The notes beneath the pieces were generated by a model. That model saw nothing but the letters and a program-made list of their open reading frames with translations. It had not been told where the DNA came from and ran no database searches. The position numbers and the translations under genes were made by a program. DNA of 64,000 nucleotides from Psammoneis japonica. Lineage: Eukaryota. Positions 10,451-64,000 of the stretch are shown here, one piece after another. The stretch spans positions 285,075 to 349,074 of the forward strand of contig QPGO01000083.1 in assembly GCA_008632985.1 (NCBI GenBank), written 5' to 3'. Numbering within the stretch: the first letter of the stretch is position 1; each line of letters starts with the position of its first letter.

Positions 10451-11222
10451 TGGCTGTTTGCTGTCTGAAAACAAAGCTGCCCTGCACCATGACACCAGCC
10501 AACTTTTCAAAATTCAGCTCAACACAAACCACTCTCATTGCACAAATGCTGTGAACAGCTGTGCAAGCCCGTCTCAAAGCCTTTTGCAGTGTGTGGCACT
10601 TTGCAAACCTCTTTGCATGGACCCTTCCCCTCACATGTCCTCCAGTCTGAGCCTCTCTGCTTCCTCCTGCTGGGTGCCTGGGTCATTTCTTGACCCAGTT
10701 GTTCAGGGGAGACAAACACGTCGCATTCTTCGATGGTTGAAGTTGGAGCAGTTGCCATGGCATGGAGACGGGGAACGATGGCACACCAGGTGTTATGAGC
10801 AAGGCGCGGCAACAAACATTCAGCACTTCCAAAAAGATGAAAATCATCAGCAATAAGTTCAAACGCATGCTCTGTAGACTTTGCGTAGCCAGCATACGAC
10901 ACACAATGCTCATACAAATGCAGGTAGATCATTATTTTAAAATTTCATTACATAAAGAAACCCTAACGGTTTTTGTATCATACAAATAAGCAATCTAATT
11001 ATGCGTATGGTCAGCACTCAGTATTTTTTGTGTCATTCATTATCATATGTTACGTATATGTATGTGTATTAGACAAAACGCCTCCGCTTGTCGTGGCTCA
11101 CAAAAGAGGAAAAGGCGCTCCAAACATACCCGTACCGTGTACCGTCTTCGTTGTCGCCACATTGTATCTCTTCGATACCTCTTCTCCTTTCACCAACTTG
11201 AAACTTGCTCTGTTGCTGCAGA

Positions 11223-22892: not shown

Positions 22893-25800
22893 TGCCCGTG
22901 CATCTGTCGAGTCCTCCACCCTGCTCACGCACCTCACCACCGCACGTCTTGGTGATGGCACTTGGAAAGGTCCGACCCACTGGTTCATCCTTCATTGGCA
23001 AGATCAGCTGTGCAAGTGCGAGGCACTCATCCCGGCCAGTGACCACTTCTCTGAAGGACAGAAGCACGTCATGCTCGAGAATGCCGCACACCCTGTCGAG
23101 GAACTCCGTGCTGTCAAGAACCAAGCTGATCAGCATCGTGCGCAGAGTGGCAAGAGCCTCACATGCGATCAATGCTGTGGCTTGCTCCTCTCCGCGGCAG
23201 CTCAATGCGACAGCACGTTTCAACCCAAGACGACACCTCGAGCTCCCCGACGTGCCACATGCGCACACGACGTCTGCTCCGAGGAACCGTCCGACGATGT
23301 GTTCTACAACATTGACAGTGACATTGACGTCCTTCAGGCCAATGCTGCCTGCACCCGTGGTCCCAGCCTCACCGGTGACCAATGGAAACGTCTCCCTCCC
23401 GACTGCCAATGGATTTGGGATTCGTTGCCCCATTCCTCCAAGGCAATCATCCTTGAGCATTCTCGTCCGCCTCACCGTAACCCGTGAGACAGCAACTGCC
23501 ATGAGTCCATTGCGGCCAACCTTCACGACCAACGCCTTGGGAGTGACGGTGATGTCAACTTGTCCAACACGACTCCTGCTGACTCTGGTGACCCCGCTCC
23601 GAATGTGGGTGCCACTTCGGACAATCCCATCCTGGCGCACCTCACCAAGCGCAAGCCACTGCCACCCGGTGATCTGCGACGTCTGTTGTCTCCTAACCAA
23701 GCCCCCAACGCTGGACGACCGGGGCCATCCGCCGCTCCCTCTACTCCGCCAGCTCCTGCCGATGACATGGAACTCAACGGCCGCACTTGCCGCCGCGTTG
23801 ACAACCACAATGTCATTTGCTCTGCCTCTGCTCATCGCTCCACACGCACTGGTGCTCTAGTCGATCGTGGGGCCAATGGCGGCATTGCTGGCGACAACGT
23901 TCGCGTCATTGCATGCGCCTCTCGCCAAGTCAACGTTCAGGGCATTGACGACCATCAATTGGTGGACATCCCTGTTGTCACCGCTGGTGCCGTCATTGAG
24001 ACCCAGCGTGGTCCCGTCATCGCCATCCTCCATCAGTGCGCACACACGGGCAAGGGCAAGACCATCCATTCCTGCGGCCAGCTCGAATGGTGCAAACAGG
24101 ATGTCAATGATCGCTCTGTCAAGGTGCCCAACGGCTTGCAACGCATTGCCACTCCTGATGGCTGTGTCATCCCCATTGACATCAAGGGCGGCCTGCCTCA
24201 TGTTGCCATGCGACCTTACACTGATGCCGAATGGGACACCCTGCCCCATGTCATCCTCACCGGTGATGACACATGGGATCCTTCCATCCTCGATCACTCT
24301 GTCACTGACGACGACCAGTGGTGCGACGCGATCTCTGACCCACAGGACGATCCCACTGCCAACCTGTTTGACGAATGCGGCAACTGCCGTCATCGTGTCA
24401 TTGTCAACGAGACCATCATGTCCGCTTCCTTGTCTGCCGATCACGCGTCCGCCCTCGATGATCACCTCATTCCGAACGACGACATGTTCTGCGAGTGTCA
24501 TCTGCACGCGATTGACCCCAAGGACGACAACGTTCCACCCCCGGAGCGCACTGTGCAGCCCAAGGACCCCCCCTTCGAGTCTCTTTGGCCTCACTTTGGC
24601 TTCCCACCTGCCGATGCGGTCCGTCGTACTTTTGACTGCACCACGCAGTGTGCCCGCATGCCCGCCGGCACACACCTTAGGAAGGCCTGCAAATCACCCA
24701 ACCCCGCCCTTGATGTGCACTGCCGCAACGAGCCTGTCGCCACTGACACCATTCATGCCGACACCCCGGCCGTCGACTCTGGTTGCACCAGCGCCCAACT
24801 GTTTGTTGGCACCGAGTCTACCGTCACTGACGTCTGCGGCACCAAGACGGACAAAGAGTTTGTCAACACACTCGAGGATCAGATCCGTGAGCGTGGTGCC
24901 CCATCCAAACTCATTGGCGACCGTGCTCAAGTTGAGATCAGCAACAAAGTGCTCGGGATCCTACGAGCCCTCTTCATCTCCAGCTGGCAAAGTGAGCCTC
25001 ACCAGCAACACCAAAACTTTGCCGAGCGTCGACACCAGACCGTGAAGCGCATGGCGAACACTGTCATGGATCGTTTTGGTTCGCCCGCCCACACATGGCT
25101 GCTGGCGCTCATGTGTGTGTGCTTCACACTCAACCACACAGCATCCCCACGTCTCCACTGGCGCACGCCCCTCGAGACTCTCACTGGCTCCACCCCGGAC
25201 ATCAGCCCATTGCTTCGCTTTCACTGGTGGGAACCCGTGCACTTCCACCTCGATGACTCCGATTGGCCACCCGAATCCCGTGAGTTGCGTGGACGCTTCG
25301 TTGGCATTGCTGAGCACATCGGCCACCAGATGACCTTCAAGATTCTCTCTGACGAGACTCAGAAGATCCTCTGCCGGTCCAACGTACGCTCCGCTGCCAC
25401 CGATCCTGCCGTTCGAAACCTGCGTCTTGATCCTCCTGATGGGGAGCCACCTGAACCCATCATCAAATCTCGCCATGACGACAACCCCGTCGATTCTCCT
25501 GATGGGGAGATCAGGACACCCAAGATGCCAGTTTTCGATCTGCAAGACATCATCGGACGCACCTTCCTCATGCAGCCACAAGAGGACGGACAACGCCACA
25601 GAGCTCGCATCGTCAAGGCCGTCGAAGACCACGAATGGAAAGTGAACGGCAATCCCGAGCTTGCAAGTTCGTCTGCTCTGTCAACAACGACAAATGCGAG
25701 GAAGTCCTTGCCTGCAACGACATCATGAATCACATTGAGCAAGAAGACGAAGACACTGCTGTTTGGAAATTCCGACTCATCGTGTCACACGAAGGACCTC

Positions 25801-28059
25801 TGAAGCCTCATGACCCAACCTGGAAAGGCTCAAGCTACAACATCATGCTTGAATGGGAAAGTGGGGAGATCACGTCCGAGCCTCTTGCCATCATTGCCAA
25901 GGACGACCCCGTCACCTGCGCCATCCATGCACGAGAGAACGGACTTCTCGACACGGATGGCTGGAAGCGGTTCCGCACCATCGCGAGGTGCCAAAAGAAG
26001 CTATTTCGCATGGCCAACCAAGCCAAGCTTTGCTCCTTCCGCACTGCACCTCGCTGCAAGTGCGGATGCGAAGTTCCCCGGAACTGCAAACACGCCATGT
26101 CACTGGACGAGCGCAACGGCAACCGCAAATGGGGAGACGCAACTAATCTCGAGATGGACCAACTCAAGGAATACGAAGTCTTCCATGACTGCGGGCCCTT
26201 CGAGTCTTCCACTCCTCCTGCGGGACACAAGAAGATCCGAGTGCACCTGGTGTGCGATGTGAAACACGACGGTCGCCACAAGGCACGACTCGTAGCCGAT
26301 GGGCACCTCACGGACGCACCTGTCGACAGTGTCTGCTCCGGAGCAGTCTCCCTCCGTGGCCTTCGGCTGATGATTTTCCTGGCCGAACTCAACGAGTTGG
26401 AGACATGGGCCACCGACATTGGCAATGCCCATCTTGAAGCCACCACCAAGGAGAAGCTCTACATTGTAGCCGGACCCGAATTTGGCAAACTCGAAGGACA
26501 CATCCTTGTCATCCACAAGGCCCTGCATGGACTGCGCAGCTCCGGTCTCCGCTGGCACGAGCGCTTCGCTGACTGCCTGCGAGCTGAAGGCTTCTTCCCC
26601 TGCCGCGCCGAACCCGACATTTGGATGCACAGGAACGGCGACCACTGTGAGTGCATTGCCGTTTATGTGGATGACCTTGCCATTGCTGTGAAGGACCCTC
26701 AATCTTTCGTCGATGCTCTCACGGAAAAGCACAAGTTCAAGCTCAAGGGTGCGGGACCCATTGAGTTCCATCTGGGTTGCGACTTTTCCCGGGATCCCGA
26801 CGGCACCTTGTGCCTGTCTCCGCGCAAGTACATCGAGCGCATGGTCAACAGCAGCACCCGACTGTTTGGGGAGAAACCTGCCACCAACGCCCTGTCACCT
26901 CTGGAGAAGGGTGACCACCCCGAACTGGACACTTCCGAACTGCTGGAGCCCGATGGCATTCACAAGTTCCAGTCCCTTGTTGGTTCACTCCAATGGGCAG
27001 TGTCTCTTGGTCGAATTGACATTGCCACGGCCGTCATGTCACTCTCTAGCTTCCGAGCTGCGCCCCGTCAAGGCCACTTGGATCATGCCAAACGCGTCTG
27101 TGGGTGCCTCTCCAGGATGCGACACGGCGCTCTCCGCGTTCGCACGGAAGAGCCCGACTGTTTGGATCTCCCTGCTCCGGCCTGTGAATGGATGCATTCC
27201 GTGTGCGGCGAAGCAGAAGAGATGATCCCGAAGGACGCTCCACCGCCCCTTGGCAAGTTCGTCACTGCCACCCACTACGTCGATGCAAACTTGCACCATT
27301 GCATGCTCACCGGACGCTCTGTCATGGGAATGCTCCACTTCCTCAACAAATTCCCGGCTGATTGGTTCTCTAAGAAGCAAGCCACCGTGGAGACTGCGAC
27401 CTGCGGGTCTGAATTTGTTGCCGCAAGGACTTGTGTCGAGCAGATCATCGACCTGCGCATCACCCTGCGCTGCCTTGGCGTCCCGATCCGTGATGTCAGT
27501 TACATGTTCGGTGACAACAAGTCAGTTGTAGACAGTGCCACCATCCCGCACTCCAAGTTACACAAGCGACACACCGCACTGTCGTTCCACCGTGTGCGTG
27601 AGGCAATCGCCTCTGGTTGCCTTGAGTTCCACTTCATCGAAGGCTCCCGCAACCCTGCTGACATTCTCAGCAAGCATTGGGGTTGCTCCCAAATCTGGGA
27701 CCTTCTCCGCCCCCTCATGTTCTGGAACTTCATTCCATCCGAAGTCGAATCTGTTTCTGTGACTCCTCAAGCAAACTGGGGAGTGACAGGATTTGAACAG
27801 GATTTAGGTGCGCGCGAAATGTCGCACGCTGTTTAGTTTGCCGCGCACAGTTTTGTGTGCTCCAGTTCCACGCGTTCGCGCGCGACGCAGTTTGCTTTCG
27901 AGCCACAAGGCTCACAAGAATGACAACAGCAGCCCGATTGCACCGACTCACACGTCTTTCGGCTCCTGCAACGGTCTCTGAGCGGAGACTCATCTGCCAT
28001 TTAGACAGCAGCAAGGAGTTGTTGTTTGAATTCTTGCCATTTGCCTTCAATTTCTGTCA
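22893..28059 (+). mobile_element. 5'-truncated Ty1/copia (CoDi-like) LTR retrotransposon, copy 1, inactivated
   Basis: gag remnant, protease (LVDRGANGG), integrase, RT (KARLVADGH, YVDDL) and RNase H (FGDNKSV, NPADILSK). CGA->TGA stop at 23485, 1-nt frameshift near 25660, PPT-like ggggag before the 3' LTR. Confidence 0.95.
27784..28059 (+). repeat. 3' LTR of copia copy 1 (276 bp, TG...CA)
   Basis: tgacagg...tttctgtca, reverse-complement homolog of the LTRs at 53691 and 60684. Confidence 0.95.
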
Positions 28060-31000
28060 ATGTCGTTCTCGTCGTGTTGTTGTCGCCTGGTTCATTCATG
28101 TTGCATCTGGCATTGCTTCGCGCACTGTGAGTTTGAATCATTCGATTGATGTCTGTGAGGTCGCACTGTCATGCGTGCGAATGTGTTTGGACAGAACATT
28201 GCGGGTGTGGCCTGTGACGTCATGATAAAAGCCTGTGTGACGTGGGCATGATCACACCTGTGACAGTGTTTGGACAGAGTCTAACCCCACTCCGCGCACT
28301 GTGTGCATGGCATGCTGTGCACAACATTTCAGAGGTGTTGCAAAACTTCCCCGAGACATTGCATTTCTGTGGACATGCCGAACCTTTCAGTGCACTCGAC
28401 AGTCGCAACAGGCTGCAAAGGACAGCTTCCGCCACAGGTCTTACATGGTTGTTTAATGCCACAGAAGTTGGTCAATTTTGGTGGGATTTTTTACGTAGAA
28501 TTCTACGTTGTGCACAGTGTGCCATGCACAAGGTCCGAGTCGCTCAAGTTCCATGCACCTGACTCAGCATGACATGCACAGCATTTGTTGACGTTGACTC
28601 AATGCTTGTTGCCATGTTTGATGGACAGCCTTTAATCTGGCAGCTTTCTTGTTCCAGTGACCTTGGAAGTGTGGTCACTTTTTGGCGAGGCCAGTGCGCA
28701 GCTTGTCTGCGAGAAGTTACACAAGCATTTTTCTACGTGGTTTCTACAAGAATCGTTGAATCTCATTGCACGTGTGCCACACCAACCGCTTAAAGTGGGT
28801 CAACAAGAACGTCAAAGGCGTCTGACATGTTTGACACAACAAGGTCTTTCCAGATTCTTCAAAGTGGTTGATCAATGGCATGACCAAAAGGCGCCAAAAA
28901 ATTGAGTTGTGCACAGCATGCTGTGCACATGCGCGATTTTGGCGAAAATGCGCAAAAATGTCTGTGCACAGCATGCCATGCACAATGCAAGCGGGGACAA
29001 GCAGGGGTGTCCCTGGTCCGCGCATCATTGCGCTTTTGTGCAACAGTGTGCAATTTTTGGGTCACAGTCATTTTGAGGTCATTCTCCATGCCATTGCAGC
29101 AAAGTGCAATGAGGATTGCATGTGCATGTGTGTCATCGGATGCCACATAAAAATGGCATTGGCATGTCAAATGCCTCATTCAGCATGAACATCAATGTTC
29201 AAACAATGGCGCTCAAAATGTCAACCCTGTGGAGTTCCACGTCAATTCCAGTGCAAACCGCGATGTGCTTTTCCGCAACGTGGCGATTTTCACAACCAAA
29301 AATGCATCCTCTTGCTGGTTGTCTTTACGAAAGCCACCTCAGGTTGTTTGACACTGTCAAACCACCAGACACAATCATTGAAGCCTGCTTTGGCCAGTTG
29401 GGTCAGGTCAGGTGTCAAATGACCGGCTTTGTCAATTGTTGGCAACAGCACAAAACCATGTTGTACTTTCGCGCAACGTGAATGCGCGGACCAGGGACAT
29501 GAGTTAGCCGGGGTTGGACTCTGCTGTAGCTCGTTGGTCGCGCACATTTTGAGAGTAATGAGTGATCAATTTACGGCATGCAGGAATGACCCACTCAGTG
29601 CATGTGGGGGGTGGGGGGCTGGCAAACTGAGCGGCAGCGAAGCAAGTCGTGAATTCGGCAACAAGGCCGCGTGAGTCTCCATTCCATTTGGGAGGTTCTA
29701 CAATCTTCCCGGTGAGAGCAGGAAGACCAGTGGATGCCAACTGTGAGAGGATTGCACAGCCATCACATCCATGGACGCAGCAAGTGTCTTCTTCCATCCC
29801 TCGCACAAACGGCGGTCCAGCAGCACGTCATCCTGAACAAGTTTCGAGCACATTTTCATGGAGAGTGCTCCTGCCAATGAGATGAGCCGATCATCACACT
29901 GTCACAGAAATCGTGCTGAGTGGGTCAGGGTGTGTCGGGTTTGTGCATGGGAGTGCCAGCTTGGGCAAAGCGAGTGTGCACAGCCTTCAGAAAAATGGCA
30001 ACATCAAAAGGTTCAAGGGAGTGGAGGTGCAGTCTGGGAGTCTTGCAGAAAGTTTTGGCATTGTGGTGCTTCTCTGATGCAGACGTGAACTTTCCTGCAA
30101 CAGAGAAGCCAGACAACATGTCTGGGAACGATGAGTGGGAGGAGAGCAGCCAGCAAGGCAATGCAATGGTTTCCAGGATCACAGTGATCTTCATGGCCAT
30201 CAGGGAATCCACAGGTGGGGATGAAATGTGGGGAAGGGCTGAAGAGTCTGGGGATGGAAGGGGGACCACGTTTGGCATCTCTGCACAAATGGCAGCAAAT
30301 TCCTTGTGTGTTCCTTTGACGGCATGACAAGCAGCATCTGAAACCTTCTCAGACACCAAAGCATGGGTGCTGGCATCATCAACTGATGCCCGGGGTGCAT
30401 TGAGCTGGGCCTTTGTAAGGAGTTGAGCAGAATTGTTGAGAACTGGCCAGCAGCATTGCGATGCAGGGTGCAACTTTTTCCCTGAATTTTGCTCTGGGAC
30501 AATTTTGTTTGTCAAAAAAAGCTCATCATTTTGGCAAGACCATTGGCACACATGTTGCTTGGCTTGAAGCTCGTCCATGGTTGACCATTTCTGCAGCGAA
30601 TCAAATTTGTCACAAAGCACTGTCTGGCACTGTAAAGCAATGAGTCAATCTGTGCAATTTCATCCGGACGACTCATTGGTGCTTCCGTTTCTTGCTTGAG
30701 CACTGCTGTGGAGAGCCAGGCATGGCAGCAGCACAGTCAGGCACTGCACAATTGACCAGAGAAGGATCAGCAAGCAACAATTCTAGAATCGTGTTGACAT
30801 CCGATGTCTCACCCAGAGCCGCAAATGCAAATGGTGGGTGCAAGCCCTCATGCTTCAATGCCAAGGACTCTGGAAATGCTTTGACAAGATGTTTGATCCC
30901 TCCATCCCAAACCTTCCCACACGCAATGGCACAATGGATGGGAAGCTTGCCGCAATTGTTGCAGAGGCTTTTCTCAACTGTCATCTGTCAATGAGAGGTG

Positions 31001-32290
31001 AGTTGTGCAGGCTTTGCCAATGTCCCAGCTGCAGCAGGATCTGTGCAAAAGCAGCTGCAGCTGAGCATCCAGACCCAGAGTTTTCACTCAAGCAAGGAGC
31101 AGCAGCAAGTGCACTGGTGCACTTTGTTGTGTGCCAGCTCTCTTTGGGAGTGCCTTGAAAAAAAAACAGGGCCCAACATCAACAATCAAATTGACTGCTT
31201 TTAACCTGTGATTGCTTTGAACAATCTTGCCAGCTCAGGACAACTGCCTGTTGATGAAAAATTTCTGCCACCCCCTTGTTTCTCAATGCCGCCCTCTTCT
31301 CCAACACATGAAGCAGGCTGGCGGGTGTCTCCATCATCAGCCCAGATGGGGTTTGTGCAGCAAGTGAAGCAGCTTGTGTGGAACAAAGTGATTTGCAACA
31401 TCCCTCTTAGATGGCTTGCTTTTGAGTGCAATGAGATGTGAGCTGATGCTGGCTGTGACAGGAGGTGGGTGTGTCAGATGTCTGAGATGTTGTGAAAGAA
31501 ACATGCACGTCATGTGCATGCACACGCAGACTTGTTCCAGACTTGGGTGGCACGCACATGCCCCTTTTTGCACAAAAAAATAAAAGTTTTTGTGCTTTGT
31601 CAAACATCGCACACATTTCATTAAATTGACCACATGAGTGCTTGCAAGCAAAACAAACAGAATGAACTCGAACCAACAAACAGCCAAACTGGCCATGGCT
31701 TTCAGTGACCATGATGGCCCACTTTTTTCAGCCTTGTGGAAAATTGAATGTCATGACGAGGACCTCTGCATTTGACACAGTCTGTGGCATCAACAAAAAC
31801 AGTGAAAACGCTTGTTGCAGGCTGCAGCTTGGCACAATGATGCCAAATCTGTCAGCAACAACAATTGAGCCTCAATTCACTCAGCTGGTTCTTGCCAAAG
31901 TGGCTGTGTGCAGCTTGGCTGGGGCTCTGGCACACAGGATCTCTCCAGCTGCTGCTTGGAAAAAATCTTGTCTTGTTTGCCCCTCAACACCCAGCTCTGC
32001 AGAAAAGGTCTCGGTCTTGGCCTTCGTCTTGTGCCAGGCAAGAAGAGCAAAGTGCTCTGGCGTGTTGGCTCTCTCTGCTCCCTCCTCTTGTTGGACTCTG
32101 CCCCTGAACTTCAACCTAGCTCACCACACACCACGACGTGATGGGAGGCGTTGGGCAAATGATGCTGACGCTCATGTGACGACCGCTGCCTTAACAATGA
32201 CGTTGAACTGAGCTCGTCACCCCTCAGACACGTTGCGCATCATTGGAGGATCTTCGGACAAAATCCTTCGGCAAGTCATCGGAGGATCTT
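28060..32290. other. TpA-depleted hypermutated block of nested repeats and gene remnants
   Basis: Very few TA and reduced CG. A short, less-mutated island lies at ~29460-29660. Confidence 0.85.
30570..30975 (-). pseudogene. Hypermutated inverted copy of the 3' end and 3' flank of the ankyrin-like gene (2245-2630)
   Basis: LCNNCGKLPIHCAIACGKVWDGG..GLHP..TILELLLADPSLV vs LYNNRGELPIHCAIACGKVWDGG..GLYP..TILELLLADPSLV. The 3' UTR also aligns. Confidence 0.9.
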
Positions 32291-49675: not shown

Positions 49676-52928
<3,253 letters not shown>

Positions 52929-53690
52929 ATGTGGATTCAACACTGTTGGGGACCATAACTGGAAGATGATTGTGCTAGCAATTCACATGCATGTTTCTGT
53001 TGGTGTAGTTTTTAGATTGTTTTTAACCTGAGGGAGGAAATCATTTGGACGTCTGCCATTGTATTCCACGACCTGTTTGATACATTTCTAGCCTTTCTCA
53101 GTCTTCCACCAAGATTGCACTTCGTTAAGCCGCATTTTGGATATGGGTTCGATGAAGGTTCAGAGAGATTGCCTCTTACCGTACGCCCGTAGTTGTACAG
53201 AAGGCTGCGCTCTAGCTAGTTGCGTGCTCACCACGAACCTGAACGTGCGCGACCAACTAGCCCTACCCCGGCTAACTCACAAGTAAATATTTTTTGTTAA
53301 AATACAAACATATCAAAAAAAACGAGTGAGATAGTGAAACAAAAGATCAATACGATTGGATTGCAACAGAGAGCGAAAATGAGTATCGAATCGTGGTGTA
53401 AATGCAAAATCCATTTTTCATCTTACAATTGGCCGTTTACCTTTCAACACAAGCAATGTATCTTCATTCTATATGACTAGTAGATAGCGTTGGTATTGTT
53501 GAAAGGATTGGAAATAGTCTAAAAAGCCGCTCCGATTCTCATGGTGTGTGGTGTTTTGAGTTTGGAGGTATGATGCGCACACGTGACTGATGAGTCCCGT
53601 CTAACATGACAGCGCGAAAGCTCAGTGCAGCAGTGATGATGTACCGGTACGAATTTTTGTACTATGTACAACATGTGCCTGTACGTCTTA

Positions 53691-53966
53691 TGATAGAAAT
53701 TGAAGGCAAATGGCAAGAATTCAAACAATAACTCCTTGCTGCTGTCTAAATAGCAGATGAGTCTCCGCTCAGAGACCGTCACAGGAGCCGAAGGACGTGC
53801 AAGTCGGCATAATCGGGCTACTGTCATTATTCTTGTGAGCCTTGTGGCTCGAAAGCAAACCACATCGCGCGTGAACGCGCGGAACTAAAGCACACAAAAC
53901 TGTGCACGGTAAACTAAACAGCGCGCGATGCTTCGCGCGCACCTAAATCCTGTTCAAATCCTGTCA
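53691..53966 (-). repeat. 3' LTR of copia copy 2
   Basis: Direct repeat of 60684-60959, preceded (element sense) by PPT-like ggggag. Confidence 0.97.
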
Positions 53967-56900
53967 CTCCCCAGTTTGCTTGAGGAGCCACAGAAACAGA
54001 TTCGACTTCGGATGGAATGAAGTTCCAGAACATGAGGGGGCGGAGAAGGTCCCAGATTTGGGAGTGACCCCAATGCTTGCTGAGAATGTCAGCAGGGTTG
54101 CGGGAGCCTTCGATGAAGTGGAACTCAAGGTGACCAGAGGCAATTGCCTCACGCACACGGTGGAATGACAGTGCGGTGTGTCGCTTGTGTAACTTGGAGT
54201 GCGGGATGGTGGCACTGTCTGCAACCGACTTGTTGTCACCGAACATGTGACCAACGTTGCGGATCGGGACGCCAAGGCAGCGCAGGGTGATGCGCAGGTC
54301 GACAATCTGCTCAACACAAGTCCTTGCGGCAACAAATTCAGACCCGCAGGTCGCAGTCTCCACGGTGGCTTGTTTCTCAGAGAACCAATCAGCCGGGAAT
54401 TTGTTGAGGAAGTGGAGCATTCCCATGACAGAGCGTCCGGTGAGCATGCAATGGCACAAGAAAAAACAATCTGCTCAACACAAGTCCTTGCGGCAACAAA
54501 TTCAGACCCGCAGGTCGCAGTCTCCACGGTGGCTTGTTTCTTAGAGAACCAATCAGCCGGGAATTTGTTGAGGAAGTGGAGCATTCCCATGACAGAGCGT
54601 CCGGTGAGCATGCAATGGTGCAAGTTTGCATCGACGTAGTGGGTGGCAGTGACGAACTTGCCAAGGGGCGGTGGAGCGTCCTTCGGGATCATCTCTTCTG
54701 CTTCACCACACACGGAATGCATCCATTCATGGGCCGGAGCAGGGAGATCCGAATGGTCGGGCTCTTCCGTGCGAACGCGGAGAGCACCGTGTCGCATCTT
54801 GGAGAGGCACCCACAGACGCGCTTGGCACGATCCAAGTGGCCTTGACGGGGCGCAGCTCGGAAGCTAGAGAGTGACATGACGGCCGTGGCAATGTCAATT
54901 CGACCAAGGGACACTGCCCATTGGAGTGAACCAACAAGAGACTGGAACTTGTGGATGCCATCGGGTCCCAGCAGTTCGGAAGTGTCCAGTTCGGGGTGGT
55001 CACCCTTCTCTAGAGGTGACAGGGCGTTGGTGGCAGGTTTCTCCCCAAACAGTCGGGCACAGCTGTCGACCATGCGCTCGATGTACTTGCGCGGAGACAG
55101 GCACAAGGTTCCGTCGGGTTCCCGGGAAAAGTCGCAACCCAGATGGAACTCAATGGGTCCCGCACCCTTGAGCTTGAACTTGTGCTTTTCCGTGAGGGTG
55201 TCGACGAAAGATTGAGGGTCCTTCATGGCAATGGCGAGGTCATCCACATAAACGGCAATGCATTCACAGTGGTCGCCGTTCCTGCACATCCAAATGTGGG
55301 GTTCGGCGCGGCAGGGGAAGAAGCCTTCAGCTCGCAGGCAGTCGGCGAAGCGCTCGTGCCAGCGGAGACCGGAGCTGCGCAGTCCATGCAGTGCCTTGTG
55401 GATGACAAGGATGTGTCCTTCGAGTTTGCCGAACTCGGGTCCAGCTGCAATGTAAAGCTTCTCCTTGGTGGTGGCTTCAAGGTGGGCATTGCCAATGTCG
55501 GTGGCCCATGTCTCCAACTCGTTGAGTTCGGCCAGGAAAATCATCAGCCGAAGGCCACGGAGGGAGACTGCTCCGGAGTGGACACTGTCGACAGGCACGT
55601 CCGTGAGGTGCCCGTCGGCTACGAGTCGTGCCTTGTGGCGACCGTCGTGTTTCACGTCGCACACCAGGTGCACTTGGATCTTCTTGTGTCCCGCAGGAGG
55701 AGTGGAAGACTTGAAGGGCCCGCAGTCATGGAAGACTTCGTACTCGTCGAGTTGGTCCATCTCGAGATTAGTTGCGTCTCCCCACTTGCGGTTGCCGTTG
55801 CGTTCGTCCAGTGACATGGCATGTTTGCAGTTCCGGGGAACTTCGTGTCCACACTTGCAGCGAGGTGCAGTGCGGAAGGAGCGAAGCTTGGCTTGGTTGG
55901 CCATGCGAAATGGCTTCTTTTGGCGCCTCGCGATGGTGCGGAACCGCTTCCAGCCATCCGTGTCGAGGAGTCCGTTCTCTCGTGCATAGATGGCACAGGT
56001 GACGGGGTCGTCCTTGGCGATGATGGCAAGAGGCTCGGACGTGATCTCCCCACTTTCCCATTCAAGCATGATGTTGTAGCTGGAGCCTTTCCAGGTTGGG
56101 TCGTGAGGCTTCAGAGGTCCTTCGTGTGACACGATGCGTCGAAATTTCCAAACAGTGGTGTCTTCGTCTTCTTGCTCAATGTGATTCATGATGTCATTGC
56201 AGGCAAGGACTTCCTCGCATTCGTCATTGTTGACAGAGCAGACGAACTTAGTGAGCTCGGGATTGCCGTTCACTTTCCATTCGTGGTCTTCGACGGCCTT
56301 GACGATGCGAGCTCTGTGGCGTTGTCCGTCCTCTTGTGGCTGCATGAGGAAGGCACGTCCAATGATGTCTTGCGGATCGAAAACTGGCATCTTGGGTGTC
56401 CTGATCTCCCCATCAGGAGAGTCGACGGGGTTGTCGTCATGGCGAGATTTGATGATGGGTTCAGGTGGCTCCCCATCAGGAGGATCAAGACGCAGGTTTC
56501 GGACGGCAGGATCGGGGGTGGCGGAGCGGACGTTGGACCGGCAGAGGATCTTCTGATTCTCATCAGATAGAATCTTGAAGGTCATCTGGTGGCCGACGTG
56601 CTCAGCAATGCCAACGAAGCGTCCACGCAACTCACGGGATTCGGACGGCCAATCGGAGTCATCGAGGTGGAAGCACACGGGTTCCCACCAGTGAAAGCGA
56701 AGCAATGGGCTGATGTCCGGGGTGGAGCCAGTGAGAGTCTCAAGGGGCATGTGCCAGTGGAGACGTGGGGACGCTGCATGGTTGAGCATGAAGCACACGC
56801 ACATGAGCGCCAGCAGCCATGCATGGGCGGGCGAACCAAAACGATCCATGACAGTGTTCGCCATGCGCTTCACGGTCTGGTGTCGACGCTCGGCAAAGTT

Positions 56901-59744
56901 TTGGTGTTGCTGGTGAGGCTCACTTTGCCAGCTAGAGATGAAGAGGGCGCGCAGGATCCCGAGCACTTTGTTGCTGATCTCAACTTGAGCACGGTCGCTA
57001 ATGAGTTTGGATGGGGCACCACGTTCACGGATCTGATCCTCGAGTGTGTTGACAAACTCTTTGTCCGTCTCAGTGCCGCAGACGTCAGTGACGGTAGACT
57101 CGGTGCCAACAAACAGTTGGGCGCTGGTGCAACCAGAGTCGACGGCCGGGGTGTCGGCACAAACGGTGTCAGTGGCGACAGGCTCGTTGCGGCGGTGCAC
57201 ATTAAGGGCGGGGTTGGGTGATTTGTGGGCCTTGCGAAGGTGTGCACCGGCGGGCATGCGGGCGCACTGCGTGGTGCAGTCAAAAGTACGACGGACCGCA
57301 TCGGCAGGTGGGAAGCCAAAGCAAGGCCGAAGAGACTCGAAGGGGGGGTCCTTGGGCTGTACAGTGCGCTCCGGAGGTGGAACATCATCGCCCTGGGGGC
57401 CAATCGCATGCAGATGACACTCGTAGAACACGTCGTCGTTCGGAATGAGGTGATCATCGAGGGCGGACGCGTGATCGGCAGACAAGGAAGCGGACATGAT
57501 GGTCTCGTTGACAACGACACGATGACGGCAGTTGCCGCATTCGTCAAATAGGTTGGCAGTGGGATCGTCCTGCAGGTCAGAGATCGCGTCGCACCACTGG
57601 TCGTCGTCAGTGACAGAGTGATCGAGGACGGAAGGGTCCCATGTGTCATCACCGGTGAGGATGACATGGGGCAGGGTGTCCCATTCGGCGTCAGTGCAAG
57701 GTCGCATGGCAACACAAGGCAGGCCAGCCTTGATGTCAATGGGGATGACACAGCCATCAGGAGTGGCAACACGTTGCAAGCCGTTGGGCACCTTGACAGA
57801 GCGATCGTTGACATCCTGTTTGTGCCATTCGAGCTGGCCGCAGGAATGGATGGTCTTGCCCTTGCCCGTGCATGCGCACTGATGGAGTGTGGCGATGACG
57901 GGACCACGCTGGGTCTCAATGACGGCACCAGCGGTGACAATGGGGATGTCCACCAATTGATGATCGTCAATGCCCTGAACGTCGACTTGGCGAGAGGTGC
58001 GTGCAATGACGCGAACGTCGTCGCCAGCAATGCCGCCGTTGGCCCCACGATCGACTAGAGCGCCAGTGCGTGTGGAGCGATGAGCAGAAGCAGAGTGAAT
58101 GACATTGTGGTTGTTGACGCGGCGGCAAGTGCGACCGTCAAGTTCCATGTCATCTGCAGAAGCTGGTGGGGTAGAGGAAGCGGCGGATGGCCCCGGTCGA
58201 CTGGCATTGGGGGCTTGGTTAGGAGACAACAGACGTTGCAGATCACCGGGTGGCAGTGGCTTGCACTTGGTGAGGTGCGCCAGGATGGGATCATCCGAAG
58301 TGGCGTCCACATGTGGAGCGGAGTCACCAGAGTCAGCAGGAGTCGTGTTGGACAAGTTGACATCACCGTCACTCCCAAGGCGTTGGTCATGAAGGTTGGC
58401 CGTAACAGACTCATGGCAGTTGCTGGCTCGCGGGTTGCAGGGAGGTGGACGAGAATGCTCAAGGATGATCGCCTTGGAGGAATCGGGCAACGAATCCCAG
58501 AGCCGTTGGTGGTCGGGAGGGAGACGTCTCCATTGGACACCGGCGAGGCTGGGACCGCGGGTGCAGGCAGCATTGGCTTGAAGGACGTCAACGTTGCTGT
58601 CAATGTCGTAGAACACATCGTCGGACGGTTCCTCGGAGTGGACGTCGTGTGCGTGTGTGGCGCATCGGGGAGCTCGAGGTGTCGTCTTGGGTTGAAATGT
58701 GCTGTCGCACTGAGCTGCGGCGGAGAGGAGCAAGCCACAGTGTTGATCGCATGTGAGGCTCTTGCCACTCTGTGTACGATGCTGATCAGCTTGGTTCTTG
58801 ACAGCACGGAGTTCCTCGACAGGGTGCACGGCATTCTCGAGCATGACGCGCTTCTGTCCTTCAGAGAAGTGGTCACTGGCCGGGATGAGTGCCTCGCACT
58901 TGCGCAACTGATCTTGCCAATGAAGGATGAACCCGTGGGTCAGACCTTTCCAAGTGCCATCACCAAGACACGCGGTGGTGAGGCACGTGAGCAGGGTGGA
59001 GGACTCGACAGATGCGCGGGTGGAGGCAAGCGCGTGCTCAGACAAGGAGCGGCAGACGGTCTGTGCGTCAGAAGACCCCACATTTTCGCGAATGAGAGCC
59101 TTGCCCTTGTCGGTGAGAAGGATGCGTTCGAAGACGGCGAACATGCACTTTTGCTGTTCAGCAAAGAGCAGTTTGTCTTCGGGGCTGGTCGGTTTGTACG
59201 ACGAGTCTAGAATGCACTTGACGTCTTGGGCACGGGCTTGTGCCACAAGTGAGGTGTGCCAAGTGTGCCACTGCTTGTCAGATTTGAGAGCCGTGAAAGT
59301 GGGATCACGCTTGATGCCTCGCTTGAAGTCCCGCACCGGGTCGCGTGCCTTGGTCGAGTTGGTGACATGTGGAGGTGCAAGGGGTGAGCTGCCGATGGAC
59401 ACAGAAGACATGTGGTCGGGGCTGAGGCGGCAGGCAAGGAACTCGTCATGCGTGAACAAAGAGGAGTCGTTGGCAACGTCAAGACCTTTGTGTGCTTTGA
59501 CAATGTACAGACTGACTGGTGCTGCTAACATGTTCTCATAACCACGGGGCAAAGGGATTGCATTGGCGCCGTTGTCGCACTCAAGCGAGTCGATTTGGGA
59601 CGGCATGAATGTGAACAGTTCCTGATGCGAGTCTGTGCCGTCTTGGGCCAAAGCCAAACGAAGAGGACTCCCAGCACCTTGGGCAAGCACGGTTCCAACC
59701 ACGTGCTCGAAACCATCGGTTTGTTGCTGACGAGTGAGAACCAT
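53914..59744 (-). pseudogene. gag-pol polyprotein of copia copy 2, Tyr-depleted and frameshifted in RNase H
   Basis: ORF from ATG 59744. Conserved Tyr replaced by Cys/His. A tandem duplication with 164-bp period (54302-54624) shifts the frame. Confidence 0.9.
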
Positions 59745-60683
59745 GGTGGACAAAGGTGGTGTCAGGACAATCAATTCTGGTTGGGAAGCGAAGGTAGACT
59801 CGAAACTTGGGTGAGAGTGGACTTGACTTGAAATGGACTTGACTTGAAATCTTGAACTGTCTTAAAATCAGAAGTCGCCGGGCTTTGTTGTCCCGTTCGT
59901 TGTCAAGTGCTAAACTTCCCATCCGGTCCGTAGAGTTGTGCCGGCACGTCCGAACCCGCAGCTGGTGGCGCTTTGGGTTGCTTGCGAGTGGAGCAGCGGG
60001 TTGCAAACCCCTGCAGGCAAGCTGACTGGAGGTGGACAAGACCCCCGAACCGTTCTCATTTTGTGTCGGTTGGATTTCCCGATCAGGCTGGCCAGTTGAC
60101 GCAGGCGTTGGGCGCTGTGGACGAACGAACAAACGCGGGAAAGCACCCTCGCCCCAACGCAGGCTGCAATCACGGCCACCTGCTCTCACAGTCGTCCTCG
60201 TGGACCTGGCAGAACTGTAGAGCACCAGCAGTCCGGGGCAGATCAGGTGCAATGGACTCGGTGTGCTTGTAGAGTGGCAGCAAAACCGCAGTCCGAAGAG
60301 TGGACAAAGGTTCTTGGCCGTGAAGACATGTACACACACACATGTCTTCAGCGACTAAGATCCTTGAACATGTGGGGTTCTTGACCGTTAACCGAGGAAC
60401 AGGTATATCAAGGGATGTTGATCAAGGATAGACTTGGATATGACCGTTGAATGTAAGTCTTCAGCGATCAAAGGTAGTGCAATCAATCCAGATGTCCAGC
60501 GGCAAGGAGACTTGACGGTGACGTTAACTTCCTGCCGATGCCCTGGTGTTGAATGCGCGTAGACTTGCCGATGTATGTAGAACACATACGGAGGTCCACG
60601 TAGAATTGAAATAGCGTCGTTGGTAAATCAACGACGACGATGGCGGTTGCTCAATGGGTTGACAATGAGCAAGACTGTTAATC

Positions 60684-60959
60684 TGATAGAAATTGAAGGC
60701 AAATGGCAAGAATTCAAACAACAACTCCTTACTGCTGTCTAAATGGCAGATGAGTCTCCGCTCAGAGACCGTTGCAGGAGCCGAAGGACGTGTAAGTCGG
60801 TGTGATCGGGCTACTGTCATCATTCTTGTGAGCCTTGTGGCTCGAAAGCAAACTACATCGCGCGTGAACGCGCGGAACTAAAGCACACAAAACTGTGCAC
60901 GGTAAACTAAACAGCGCGCGATGCTTCGCGCGCACCTAAATCCTGTTCAAATCCTGTCA
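60684..60959 (-). repeat. 5' LTR of copia copy 2
   Basis: Direct repeat of 53691-53966, followed (element sense) by gattaacagtc. Confidence 0.97.
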
Positions 60960-60964
60960 TCTTA

Positions 60965-63900
60965 CGTGCTCTGGTGGCACTTTGACAGCGACTCCCTCCA
61001 ACACTGACGTGCTGAGTTTCTCACAAAAAAACACACACAAGCAACCATGAGCAGCCCTGTGAATGCTGCAAGCAGCTTGGTGTCTCCCATGTGGTGTGGC
61101 TGGGCTTGTCCATTCTTCGAAGCACAGCAGCTGTGTTTGCCATGTGACAAGCATCCGGTCGGTTGCTGTTTCGACTTTAAACTGTGGTGTCTGACAGGCA
61201 TTGTTCTTGAACAGTGAATTAAACAGCTGTCAAATTGTCCCTGTCACCCTTTGTGGGCACTGGGGAATGTGGGTCTGCTGCTGTGGGGTCGGTCCTGATC
61301 AACTTTTCTGCCGCACTCAACCGGTGCACTGGAAATGTGGGTCAGCTGGCGCCGGCACAGCCAACAACAGCTCAGTGGAACTTAAAACACAGATTTGGTT
61401 TTTCTTTAATTGACAATCTGTGCACATTGTCAGGAGTTGTGTGTGTCCACCCCACTGAGAAACTGTCATCGAACAGGTTGATGGGCATGCAAAGATGACC
61501 GGCAGACACTTCAACAGTGTCGCCCCATTGCTTCAGCTTGACCTTGCTCTGTTGTTGACATGGATTTGTTTTCTTGTGCAGAGCTTTCATCCTGCCATCA
61601 TCCATGGGCAGTCAACACATGAGATCAATGGAAAACACAGAGAACGTCCCTGCCAAGCAGAGATTCGCTGGTGTGGTGCTGCAGATGATGGTTTGGCAGT
61701 GAGCGCAACAGGTTTGTGGAGCTGTTGGAACAAGCAAGAGCCAGAAAAGTTGTAGGTTGATGTTGGTGAGATGGTGCTTCATGAAGACTGGCCTCAGAAA
61801 CTCCAAGAGGAGCACAACAAATGCGCTGGAAATGCCAGCCAGCTGTGCAACAACCCCCAGCTGTGTCCCCAGAGAGTGCACTTGACTGTTTTCAGTCAGC
61901 CCGGCTTTTCCATTGCATCGTTCTGAGATGCTTGAATGTGGAGCTTGAACCGCTGGGTTGTCCTCAGAAAAATGCTTCTGATCCAGCATTCGTTGATGGC
62001 TTGCATTGTTGCCATGTGTTTCATGATGAGGTCCAAGACCCAAGTTGACATTTCTCAATGCTTCCTTGTGGCACATCTCTGAGCTTCCTCTTCCACATTC
62101 AGAGCTCAATGGAGCTGCATTTCTGAAACTCCCTGAGTTGCACCATGCCAGCACTGCTGAGTTCCTGCAATCCAGCAACATTTGTCCATCGCAGCAGGCT
62201 TGGGAATGTTTCTCTCTTCACCCCAATGATGGTGCTGGATGCAGAGCACACAGCAGTGGTGTGCGCATTGGCTGAAACCAGCAGTGCATGAAGCACAACA
62301 GCTTTCAATCACTCCTCCCACAATGCGTCCAAGATTGTGCCCATCTTTTGCAGAGGTGGTTGGCTGAGTCGTTTTTTTCTGCCAAACATCTTTTTTTTTT
62401 GCTGGTGGCCTTGCTGCTGAGAATGGTGGGCAGATGATGCACAAAGCGGCAGCCACGCTAACTCAACAAGCACGACTTAGTTTCAGCACTGCAAATTCGC
62501 CGTTAAAATGCCGTGGCTGGAAACTGCAGAAACCAACACACCATGGCGACTCTACGGTCGCTGTTTCCTCAACGGCATCACCTTCAAGAGCCACAACAAA
62601 GAACAACATTTCACATCTCGTGAACTTGTGTGTGGCAGAATTGACACATGCAAGTGCAATGGGCTCATTGTTGACTCATGCAGTCAAAAAACGATGGGAA
62701 AAAAATTGAACATTTTTCAGCTGTTTTCACTGCGATCAATCAACATCAAAGCACAGCAAGGCACACACATGTGAAATGAATTGCACGACATTGATGTGTG
62801 TCAGTGTTGTGGTGAGTTCATGGCTGTTGATGGAGTGCATTGCATTCGCGGTCGCCATTGTCGTTGCGTTTCAACAAGTCGTGGAAAATTTGAAATCCAG
62901 AACATTTGTGTGTGCAGGCATGTTGTCACTTGTGGGATTTAAACATTGGACATTGCTCTGTGCACAGAGCATTTGCATTTTTCACTTGTTGCAATCTCAT
63001 GTGTGCACAAGGTGTTGGCATTGATTGCCCAATGTGACACACATCAATGTCCAAATGTAAACATCAGACTTGCCGCCAGCAAAAAAAAAGGTGGGGGTGG
63101 TTGTTGGCTTGACTTGCAACACCATAAAAACAAGGCACCGATGGAGTTCTTTTCACTCCCCTTTCTCCACCCTCTCTTTCTGATTCTTGTTCATTGTTGC
63201 CAATTGTTTGAATGGCATGCAAAGTTTTGTCTTGTCATCTGAGAATGCAATCGCGTGAAGCTTCAATTTTTCAGTCCAGAGCCCATTGGAGGGCCCTCCC
63301 GATGGTCTTCTGGCACTTGCTTTCACCAATGTAGCCATGGCACTTGTGAACAAAAGAATCAGCAAGTTCAGGGCTTTCAATTGCAATGACTTCAAACTTG
63401 GCAAGAAACTTCCCCTGGAGCAAAGGTCACAGCACATTTTCAGCTCGCATTTCACAACTTCTCGTGCTCTCTTTTCTCTGAAAGAAATCCACAGTCATGA
63501 GATTCTCAAGTGGTTCGTGAATTTTCACTCGCGGGTCTCCAGCATCAATGGCAAAGAAGGAACCAGATGTTCCTTTGTCCCGGTTGAAACCTTGGACGAG
63601 ATGAGGTGCCTCTGCCTCAAGAGAGACAAAGCCTTTTGAAGGGCTCCAGTCCTGGGTGGGACTCTGTGTGCGGTGTGTGACATTTGGCATTTGGCGGGCC
63701 CACAGAATTCTGCGTGCGAGCTCCGCAACAAATTTGTCAAGCAATGAAAATGTAAATGATGACAGAAACATCCTTGCCACAACCGCCCCGCTCAAATCTG
63801 AATCTCTGTCATGCCAGTCTCTAGCTAGAGCAGAAGTGCTGTGGCATGTGCAATGCATGTGCGTTGTCAAACAGCTGCAATGGCCACCGCGACTGTCAAC

Positions 63901-64000
63901 ATTCTCAAGCAGCAGGGGAAGAAAGTGAAGTTTGGCAAAGTCGATGATGACGACATTGATTTTGGGTGCAAAGAGAAGAAATCGCGGCGGCGTTGGAATG
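60965..64000. other. TpA-depleted hypermutated block, possibly a decayed DNA transposon
   Basis: Near absence of TA. Shares repeats with ~8030-8105 (at ~61325-61405) and with 47790-47910. Minus-strand CCASCTAGFSQCAHHCCVL (~62245-62300) resembles a SWIM zinc finger, weak evidence. Confidence 0.7.

Follow-up and report, generated by a model that had tools for sequence, protein, structure and literature searches.

Hypermutation directed at TpA has been described in the chlorarachniophyte Bigelowiella natans, where it acts on integrated giant-virus and virophage DNA (Mettrop et al., bioRxiv 10.64898/2026.01.13.699255). According to the available part of this preprint, TpA is converted to TpG or CpA in silent integrated viral DNA, at a rate measured de novo to be about 1000-fold above background, and the TpA-poor coding sequences of B. 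natans are enriched in reverse transcriptase and DDE domains. CpG, LTRs, diatoms and stramenopiles are not mentioned in that part of the text, and a search of open-access PMC and bioRxiv found no other paper on TpA-to-TpG/CpA hypermutation. Here we analysed a 64,000-nucleotide stretch of DNA (the window), in which an integrated Ty1/copia element has probably undergone a host-driven, TpA-directed A:T-to-G:C hypermutation.

As far as the available description of B. natans goes, the two cases are alike in that the changes are almost solely A-to-G or T-to-C, all on TpA, that foreign or silent DNA is struck while host genes are spared, and that the lasting trace is a depletion of TpA with an enrichment of CpA+TpG. 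They also differ. The rate lies about three orders of magnitude over the genome in B. natans and at least about 30-fold above other bases here; the target here is a highly repeated LTR retrotransposon, whereas single-copy virus is the main target in B. natans, where the process does not hinge on copy number. The evidence here is comparative (an LTR pair, tandem units, paralogous copies and polarisation on proteins), whereas that from B. natans consists of de novo mutations, which appear in cultured lines and only in part of these. As to erosion, rho TpA is 0.00-0.19 here as compared with 0.45 in the B. natans viral region, and CpG decay runs alongside it here.

Other known processes can be compared in the same way. 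Fungal RIP is likewise a transition hypermutation of chromosomal mobile DNA in a CA/TG/TA dinucleotide context that inflates dating; here, however, TA gives CA/TG, G+C goes up, no stops are made, a duplicate is not hit per se and the host is not a fungus. RIP would strike every duplicate of adequate length, and the 1.5-kb pair described below has an ordinary spectrum. TadA works in an anticodon-loop context with a 5' U/T. Enzymes of the ADAR and ADAT/TadA types resemble the present case in that A is read as G and a 5' U/T is preferred (for the ADAR preference, see Mettrop et al.), but they act on RNA, whereas here both strands of resident DNA were changed. APOBEC3 is also a host deaminase mutating retroelements in a short sequence context; it converts C to U on minus-strand cDNA before integration and leaves G-to-A on one strand, whereas the changes here are A:T to G:C, on both strands and post-integration. 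Finally, CpG decay of methylated transposons also ends in TG/CA: it is present in the family studied here and nearly complete in the relics, but it is much slower here than the loss of TpA.

The element is a Ty1/copia LTR retrotransposon at 53691-60959, with direct LTRs, TG...CA ends and a 5-bp target duplication, composed as follows:

53686..53690, no strand assigned: left target-site duplication TCTTA, matching 60960-60964
53691..53966, minus strand: 3' LTR, 276 bp, TG...CA, having lost 5 of 16 inferred ancestral TpA
53964..59774, minus strand: copia-type polyprotein frame of 1936 codons, hypermutated, with RVT_2 at residues 1360-1571
53967..53974, minus strand: polypurine-tract-like run CTGGGGAG (sense strand) adjoining the 3' LTR, its putative role judged from position alone
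54302..54624, no strand assigned: tandem duplication of two units of about 164 bp, found in the 53691-60959 element only
60684..60959, minus strand: 5' LTR, 276 bp, TG...CA, having lost 6 of 16 inferred ancestral TpA
60960..60964, no strand assigned: right target-site duplication TCTTA

The element lies on the minus strand, as the frame runs from 59774 to 53964 and the purine run sits beside 53967; 53691-53966 is thus the 3' LTR and 60684-60959 the 5' LTR. The polyprotein matches Pfam RVT_2, the copia-type reverse transcriptase (E = 7.3e-24). Integrase, gag and RNase H had no Pfam match up to E = 1, either in this polyprotein or in its unmutated relative P0010; the whole family is too divergent for these models. 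A stop census found no premature stop in the polyprotein frame, which is still open because loss of TpA creates no new stop codons.

A preliminary description of this DNA had claimed that the LTRs differ only at TA/TG/CA dinucleotides, with an intact TCTTA duplication and some 20 unchanged CpGs, and our alignment bears out each of these points. Between 53691-53966 and 60684-60959 there are 11 mismatches and no gaps, all of them transitions (53729 T/C, 53738 G/A, 53752 A/G, 53780 C/T, 53781 A/G, 53800 C/T, 53808 C/T, 53809 A/G, 53811 A/G, 53828 T/C and 53861 C/T), and all fall within the same 9 TA/TG/CA dinucleotides; the two 5-bp duplications are identical. By dinucleotide, 20 CpGs are shared and intact (20/20, no CpG change), 7 sites read TA in both LTRs, 7 read TA against TG or CA, and 2 read CA against TG. 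The target bases make up 32 of 276, and all 11 mismatches lie inside them (p = 5e-11 under a uniform distribution); none of 200000 simulated sets of 11 random transitions was confined entirely to TA/TG/CA pairs. Divergence is 11/32 at TpA bases as compared with 0/244 at other bases (upper 95% bound 1.2%; Fisher p = 9e-12), in line with the earlier statement that the change was far faster than background, although this spectrum comes from a single LTR pair. In the same pair, 0 of 40 CpG copies were altered as against 11 of 32 TpA copies.

The 11 mismatches fall on 16 inferred ancestral TpA sites. Two sites appear to be hit in both LTRs, as compared with an expected overlap of 1.9, which fits saturation of TpA. 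Read on the sense strand, the 5' LTR carries 2 TG and 4 CA events and the 3' LTR 4 TG and 1 CA: both types of change occur in both LTRs, in agreement with the proposal that chromosomal DNA was changed after integration and on both strands.

The direction of change can be read from the proteins. Among 50 Tyr columns conserved in 60 relatives, the element keeps only 8, and shows Cys (TGY) at 24, His (CAY) at 11, Phe at 4 and other residues at 3. Tyr makes up 0.67% of its polyprotein as compared with 3.8% in relatives, the lowest content among 121 proteins (the next-lowest is 2.86%). The preliminary description had placed the direction away from TA and named a TG/CA-ancestral consensus as the opposing outcome; comparison with the 60 relatives gives the contrary of that outcome, Tyr turning into Cys or His. 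Other records follow the element at family Tyr columns, with Cys or His at 13/18 in P0296, 14/15 in P0339 and 10/17 in P0286, and two control records keep the family Tyr at 31/37 and 22/25. P0002 and P0003, taken by bit score for close unmutated relatives, were set aside: their proteins are about 50% identical and each holds two RT-like stretches.

Nucleotide comparisons within the family were made with a second copy:

22895..28059, plus strand: copy 2 of the same family, 5'-truncated and about 94% identical, used as comparison copy and outgroup
27784-28059, plus strand: 3' LTR of copy 2, with only 3 TpA remaining

Across the three LTRs, 53800/01 and 53861/62 show CA, TA and TG, which takes 2 steps from TA as compared with 4 from CG. 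At 53861/62, other copies in public contigs carry T in 97% and A in about 70% of the depth, among the contigs listed, all from runs of one sample that is possibly the assembly's own source. In an 82% pair, TA in one copy corresponds to TG or CA in the relic at 11 of 13 sites, with no reverse change. Between the tandem units at 54302-54624 there are 3 base differences, which lie in 2 TA-family dinucleotides and fit the TpA spectrum (3/3); at position 54378 unit 1 has CA, whereas unit 2 and copy 2 have TA. One result points the other way: with the LTR of copy 2 as the only outgroup, simple parsimony polarises 4 of the 7 single-difference sites towards TA (53729, 53738, 53752 and 53828). We discount it because this LTR is saturated, with so few TpA left, but it still counts against the proposed direction.

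The two copies were also hit independently: at 8 Tyr codons one of them has TG where its counterpart has CA, and only 6 of 43 family Tyr codons are still TA in both. At the 18 coding sites with TG against CA, the family residue is Tyr at 10 and Arg at 2. Among 61 family Arg codons, 11 have CG in just one copy, the second having TG or CA, and 1 pairs TG with CA. Of 46 polarised changes between the copies, 4 are TA to TG/CA, 2 are TG to TA and 19 are ordinary CpG decay; a further 12 appear as CA/TG to CG and are possibly mis-polarised. The loss of TpA in the LTRs (5/16 and 6/16) is far below that at internal Tyr codons, so much of the internal loss is older than this insertion. It follows that new copies went on being made from elements already mutated, and the explanation proposed below does not account for this.

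The family is multi-copy in public contigs, very abundant and polymorphic at the LTR sites: it is represented by 2718 contig pieces, and the summed depth, about 56 in the flank, reaches 84,000-776,000 over the LTR, contig depth not being equal to copy number. A scan of metagenome contigs for close LTR-bearing relatives returned just one 2.3-kb locus, at 47% identity.

Two controls within the window show what is spared:

49744..52928, plus strand: gene for the host's P-type Ca-ATPase, unaffected although only 760 bp separate it from the element
2635..4162, no strand assigned: non-TE sequence duplicated over 1.5 kb at 95% identity (second member 17111-18631), its mismatches following an ordinary spectrum

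The host Ca-ATPase keeps 9 of 13 conserved Tyr and has changed none to Cys; it has no match above 70% identity, and its best named matches are from oomycetes and diatoms. The host is thus not B. natans. The 1.5-kb pair has 63 mismatches, including 29 transversions, and 39 conserved TpA. That this 95%-identical duplicate was not hit suggests that duplication alone is not the trigger.

Base composition extends the signature beyond the LTRs. In both copia copies rho TpA is 0.04-0.19 and rho CpG 0.79-0.95, TpA is depleted about 5-20 fold (TpA/ApT = 0.25 and 0.12), (CpA+TpG)/(ApC+GpT) is 1.3-1.4, and G+C reaches 56-57% as compared with 45-51% nearby; rho TpA is 0.45-0.92 in host-like kilobases. By the TpA-depletion and CpA+TpG-enrichment thresholds in the available text of Mettrop et al., 18 of 64 one-kb windows pass. 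Three blocks are poor in both TpA and CpG:

5001..11000, no strand assigned: old TpA- and CpG-poor relic block, per kb rho TA 0.00-0.29, rho CG 0.11-0.34 and CA+TG 1.7-1.8, without copia match
28060..32000, no strand assigned: relic block beside copy 2, rho TA 0.05-0.19 and rho CG 0.16-0.70, holding a degraded copy of 2243-2627
61001..64000, no strand assigned: relic block beside the 53691-60959 element, rho TA 0.07-0.09 and rho CG 0.34-0.49

From their composition and position these blocks are probably transposon remains. The TA- and CG-free relics gave no Pfam match and no tblastn match to 8 copia-family proteins, and a homolog search with the relic ORF 769-2529 found none.

Two minor features of the changed sites may be recorded. 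A 3' C follows 58 of 127 mutated A as compared with 88 of 257 unmutated ones, a weak excess (p = 0.04, uncorrected) that we take as a hint and do not claim; at young events the count is 6 of 14. No coherent strand bias emerges: Tyr-to-Cys outnumbers Tyr-to-His 24:11 (p = 0.04), but raw counts on the sense strand show more CA than TG.

What we observe is the spectrum and direction of change, that it is confined to the element and that host DNA is spared; host-driven hypermutation at TpA is, in our judgement, the probable explanation. The process would strike chromosomal DNA once the element is integrated, hitting both strands and each site by chance, a change of A on the top strand turning TpA into TpG and a change of A on the bottom strand turning it into CpA. 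Its rate would exceed that of all other bases at least about 30-fold. It would target mobile or silent DNA and not just any duplicated sequence. The LTRs would have been identical at insertion and each would since have lost about one third of its TpA, at different sites, hence the 11 differences. In the long term, nearly all TpA would be removed and a slower, ordinary CpG decay would follow, leaving relics with hardly any pyrimidine-purine step other than TG or CA; the frame would stay open while conserved Tyr turns into Cys or His. As Mettrop et al. propose for B. natans, the chemistry is most likely a deamination of adenine to hypoxanthine at 5'-TA, carried out by a nucleic-acid adenosine deaminase. 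Chromatin or small RNA may guide the process to its targets.

A different chemistry would start from the thymine of TpA: modified, for example to 5-hydroxymethyl- or 5-formyluracil by a TET/JBP-type enzyme, it would mispair with G and yield T-to-C without any adenine being deaminated. TpA being palindromic, sequence does not tell A-to-G after a T from T-to-C before an A, which counts for this reading. So do two points of background: T is replaced by hydroxymethyluracil in dinoflagellates chiefly at TpA and TpC, and 5-formyluracil mispairs with G. However, there is no conspicuous excess of TpC-to-CpC (C/T mismatches followed by C are 5 of 121), and known polynucleotide adenosine deaminases already prefer a 5'-U/T (Mettrop et al., in the text available). 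We regard a thymine origin as unlikely, though worth keeping in mind.

The LTR differences might also have come from read mixing in assembly or polishing, from miscalled modified bases, or from ectopic gene conversion by polymorphic family members. The abundance of the family and its polymorphism at these very sites speak for such an origin, and among the contigs listed none spans the LTR together with its flank. Yet, among the variants listed, polymorphisms of the family outside TpA never differ between the two LTRs (53793, 53872, 53906 and 53929-31): at 53793 more than 99% of the other depth in public contigs is A, among the contigs listed, and still the two LTRs agree. Moreover, over 130 bp the derived state is found now in one LTR, now in the other, so that conversion would have to proceed by numerous very short tracts, and a flank contig shows 0 differences from the window. 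This origin seems to us quite improbable; even if it were true, only the post-integration argument would fall, and the family-wide direction and signature would stand.

Editing before integration, by A-to-I on element RNA or deamination of single-stranded cDNA with nothing happening after insertion, would suit the internal TpA loss that predates the insertion and the surplus of Tyr-to-Cys over Tyr-to-His. Under the standard scheme of reverse transcription, however, editing of RNA leads to identical LTRs, and here the LTRs differ, with both types of change in each. Editing of cDNA predicts TA-to-TG on the sense strand only in the 5' LTR and TA-to-CA only in the 3' LTR, a prediction that 8 of the 11 events contradict. 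The tandem units, born in DNA, carry the same spectrum. ADAR/ADAT-type enzymes do favour a 5' U, but in B. natans the events took place in dividing cells, on chromosomal DNA (Mettrop et al., in the text available). All together, we give pre-integration editing very little credence.

For the two CA/TG sites, 53780/81 and 53808/09, the preliminary description had allowed a formal origin as CpGs. Under this reading 5-methylcytosine would have been deaminated on opposite strands in the two LTRs. CpG decay is indeed present in the family, as the Arg codons show, and relics are CpG-poor. Nevertheless, neither LTR has lost any of the remaining CpGs, the two hits in one LTR would have to fall on the same sites as the two in the other (p = 1/231), and TG-against-CA coding sites lie on family Tyr far more than on Arg; an origin in TpA fits better, and one in CpG is highly improbable. 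Classical RIP or another C-to-T hypermutation, with CpA/TpG ancestral and TpA as the product, agrees with differences that are all transitions at CA/TG/TA and with the polarisation by the copy 2 LTR alone, but it is practically untenable: family Tyr codons became Cys or His and never the reverse, TpA is depleted and not enriched (by the TpA/ApT and (CpA+TpG)/(ApC+GpT) ratios above, set beside the usual RIP thresholds), G+C of the element is above its surroundings with a frame free of premature stops, CA/TG and three-state sites require extra steps, and the 1.5-kb duplicate is untouched.

Host-driven TpA hypermutation of the integrated element would thus represent a second, independent natural case, from a different major lineage than B. 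natans, as the host looks like a stramenopile. A wider spread among protists then becomes plausible. More tentatively, and as a possibility that we rate below even chances, TpA hypermutation may be an old guided genome defence common to the SAR supergroup, at least to Rhizaria and stramenopiles. It would edit the resident double-stranded DNA of silenced elements independently of duplication, disable their proteins without stop codons and, together with CpG methylation decay, lead to the TG/CA end state.

New in the present case are LTR retrotransposons as targets, the post-integration action on both strands, duplication alone apparently being no trigger, a loss of TpA that outruns CpG decay, and an end-state DNA with pyrimidine-purine steps almost all TG or CA. 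For genome analysis, dating by LTR divergence is inflated in such genomes, as the preliminary description had warned (4% overall as compared with 0/244 at non-TpA bases). As TAA and TAG vanish, gene finders should call long spurious frames in hypermutated DNA, and eroded elements should be missed by homology searches. If the chemistry is DNA adenine deamination at 5'-TA, its enzyme would amount to a DNA adenine editor of natural origin, and if the SAR-wide reading is true, old transposon remains that are not recognisable by other means would be mappable from composition alone in many protist genomes.

The TCTTA-flanked element is a Ty1/copia LTR retrotransposon, and a second copy of the same family (copy 2) lies in the window. 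Because the long open frame runs on the minus strand and a purine run adjoins position 53967, the repeat at 53691-53966 is the 3' LTR and the repeat at 60684-60959 is the 5' LTR.

53691-60959, minus strand: copia element, 7269 bp, with 276-bp direct repeats ending TG...CA
53686-53690 and 60960-60964: target duplication TCTTA, intact
53691-53966, minus strand: 3' LTR, assigned from frame orientation and purine run
60684-60959, minus strand: 5' LTR, assigned from frame orientation and purine run
59774 to 53964, minus strand: 1936-codon frame
adjoining 53967, sense strand: purine run
22895-28059, orientation opposite to the element: copy 2, 5'-truncated, ~94% identical

The copia-type reverse transcriptase RVT_2 was the sole Pfam match of the element polyprotein (E = 7.3e-24), as it was of P0010, an unmutated relative. 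Public data contain 1538 relatives of the element protein; among the best 120, the RT region is 52-73% identical to that of the element and most proteins are ~1900 aa long. The LTR family is very abundant, with 2718 matching contig pieces in the public contigs of one sample. In the unique flank, summed contig depth jumps from ~56 to 1900-6700 at 53220-53307 and 53484-53571, which places short repeats in the interval separating the element from the host gene. At 22684-22895, DNA similarity of copy 2 to the full element stops at 22895, although a family protein still aligns from 22747 onward; the 5' part of copy 2, including the second LTR, is absent or replaced.

The preliminary description held that the two LTRs differ only at TA, TG or CA dinucleotides, with no other substitution or indel, about 20 unchanged CpGs and an intact target duplication, and our analysis confirmed each of these points. 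The alignment was gap-free, and its 11 mismatches, all transitions, fell within the same 9 dinucleotides. CG faced CG 20 times, TA faced TA 7 times, TA faced TG or CA 7 times and CA faced TG twice; CpG changes were looked for in this dinucleotide table and none was seen. All 11 mismatches lie inside the 32 bases of 16 inferred TpA sites (uniform p = 5e-11), with no difference at any of the remaining 244 bases. When 11 random transitions were simulated 200000 times, no set fell wholly within TA/TG/CA pairs. Change far faster than background, as had been proposed, is equally apparent (11/32 TpA bases against 0/244 others, Fisher p = 9e-12), and no CpG copy was changed (0/40) against 11/32 TpA copies. 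At 53793, both LTRs carry G, in the context AAAGA, where A makes up over 99% of contig depth in other copies; this is a non-TpA A-to-G change older than the insertion.

To determine direction, the element protein was aligned with 60 full-length relatives and columns were scored where at least 70% of the relatives have Tyr. At the 50 family-Tyr columns, the element has Tyr 8 times, Cys 24, His 11, Phe 4 and other residues 3 times. Its Tyr content (0.67%, against 3.81% in relatives) is the lowest among 121 proteins, the second-lowest being 2.86%, and its Cys content is 3.56% against 0.92%. With TAY coding for Tyr, TGY for Cys and CAY for His, TpA is the ancestral state, from which TpG and CpA arose. 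On these alignments, the element's direction of change is away from TpA, as originally claimed, and opposite to that of fungal repeat-induced point mutation (RIP, C:G to T:A); a family consensus with TG or CA ancestral was looked for, and the relatives show the opposite. Per kb, TpA observed/expected is 0.04-0.19 and CpG 0.79-0.95 in both copia copies, TpA/ApT is 0.25 and 0.12, and G+C exceeds that of the surroundings. At 53800/01 and 53861/62, three LTRs show CA, TA and TG, which requires two changes if TA was the starting state and four if it was CG; at 53861/62, T accounts for 97% and A for ~70% of contig depth in other copies. In an unrelated 82% repeat pair, 11/13 TA of one copy are TG or CA in the partner, and the reverse was never seen (0). 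One result is contrary: the copy 2 LTR (27784-28059) has the same non-TA state at 4/7 single-difference sites, and naive parsimony would there give change toward TA. We discount this because just 3 TpA remain in that LTR, making it a saturated outgroup. Of the 46 differences between the copies that were polarised, 12 appear to run from CA/TG to CG and 2 run from TG to TA; these may be mis-polarised.

Change after integration and on both strands, as the preliminary description proposed, is borne out by the presence of both TG and CA outcomes in each LTR. Consistent strand bias, or a context wider than the dinucleotide, was looked for in the element data and not found. A ~164-bp tandem duplication at 54302-54624 within the element, absent from copy 2, repeats the observation independently: the 159 bases shared by its units are identical except for 3, which lie in 2 TA-family dinucleotides, and 54378 is CA in unit 1, TA in unit 2 and in copy 2. 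This duplication, situated towards the 3' end of the polyprotein, causes a frameshift, and the final ~200 amino acids of the 1936-aa translation are therefore unlikely to be native. The two CA/TG sites of the LTR pair had been considered possible former CpGs. This reading is less favoured: 1.9 TpA hits shared by the two LTRs are expected under saturation and 2 were seen, against a coincidence p of 1/231 for the CpG reading. Between the two copies, TG faces CA at 53 sites in all, including 8/43 family Tyr codons; the 18 at codon positions 1-2 fall on family Tyr (10), Phe (3), Arg (2) and elsewhere (3). Because such coding sites are mostly on family Tyr, the two LTR sites are better read as TpA struck in both LTRs. 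Deamination of single-stranded cDNA could make the LTRs differ, but it predicts sense TA-to-TG only in the 5' LTR and TA-to-CA only in the 3' LTR; with 2 TG and 4 CA seen in the 5' LTR and 4 TG and 1 CA in the 3' LTR, 8/11 events are of the wrong type. RNA editing cannot account for differences between the LTRs, because standard reverse transcription yields two identical ones.

The host Ca-ATPase gene, 760 bp from the element, has kept 9/13 conserved Tyr, the others being His (1), Ser (1) and Phe (2) with no Cys, and its composition is normal. It occupies two overlapping frames (49744-51951 and 51942-52928), pointing to a frameshift or a short intron near 51.94 kb. The window also holds an inverted duplicate:

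2635-4162 and 17111-18631: 1.5-kb inverted duplicate, 95% identical

Its spectrum is ordinary (63 mismatches, 29 of them transversions; 39 TpA conserved). Judged by background divergence, it is older than the LTR pair and it is untouched, thus duplication alone is not the trigger. The open frames that hold its two members, 452 and 475 codons long, have no Pfam match; the pair may be host paralogs.

CpG decay is a second process, slower than TpA loss. Between the two copies, CG faces TG at 34 sites and CA at 55, and 324 CpG are conserved; both copies have CG at 43 of the 61 family Arg codons, and at 11 one copy has decayed (copy 2 in 8 cases). Elsewhere, relic blocks show TpA rho (observed/expected) of 0.00-0.29, CpG rho of 0.09-0.70 and CpA+TpG at 1.7-1.9 times expectation:

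5001-11000 (~5-11 kb): relic block
28060-32000 (28-32 kb): relic block
43001-44000 (43-44 kb): relic block
48001-49000 (48-49 kb): relic block
61001-64000 (61-64 kb): relic block

These blocks are complex sequence, not microsatellite, with sharp borders to host-like DNA; Pfam, copia-family and homolog matches were sought in them and none was found. We take them to be probable old targets, where TpA loss and CpG decay are both almost complete. At 6001-8000, G-over-C skew is strong (0.47), with 125-129 TG against 73-85 CA per kb on the plus strand, as would be expected if both the A-to-G and the C-to-T changes had fallen mainly on one strand. Within 769-2627, the 3' end of a 586-codon frame without known relatives has a degraded 82% copy inside a relic block, at 30577-30968, where TpA is lost at 11/13 sites and CpG at 10/17.

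Numerous long open frames (e.g. 394, 383 and 294 codons) occur in several of the six frames at 53964-60959 and 22684-27836. They arise because TAA and TAG are almost gone: the sense frames of the copia copies contain 0, 5 and 8 TAA/TAG against 1, 21 and 73 TGA. An open frame in these copies is therefore no evidence of an intact gene.

In open-access full-text literature (PMC, bioRxiv), the TpA signature was found only in Mettrop et al. (bioRxiv 10.64898/2026.01.13.699255). In that preprint, integrated giant virus and virophage DNA in Bigelowiella natans mutation-accumulation lines gains ~6e-7 mutations per site per generation, ~1000-fold above the remaining genome, nearly all A-to-G and T-to-C and every one on TpA; TpA-poor coding sequences are enriched in reverse-transcriptase and DDE domains, and an ADAT2-like DNA adenosine deaminase is proposed. 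Spectrum, direction, targeting and long-term trace all match those of the element, and 18/64 one-kb windows here pass its thresholds. The systems also differ. The target here is a repeated LTR retrotransposon rather than a giant virus and virophage, erosion is much deeper, and CpG decay accompanies TpA loss, whereas the preprint text mentions neither CpG, LTRs nor other taxa. The host also differs: its Ca-ATPase has no match above 70% identity, the best named being oomycetes (62-65%) and diatoms (59-63%), and a quick single-gene tree places it outside both clades with weak support. Cys or His also occupy family Tyr columns in three further public proteins (P0296, 13/18; P0339, 14/15; P0286, 10/17), and two control proteins keep Tyr at 31/37 and 22/25.

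Since insertion, the LTRs have lost 5/16 and 6/16 TpA, much less than the internal Tyr codons; thus much of the internal loss predates insertion and mutated copies were still being copied, which counts against the proposed account, in which we infer both the adenine chemistry and the guidance of targeting. All together, the original observation and interpretation hold, and the feature is genuine, pronounced and of biological interest. This kind of hypermutation was already described in 2026, but the host lineage and the target class are new.
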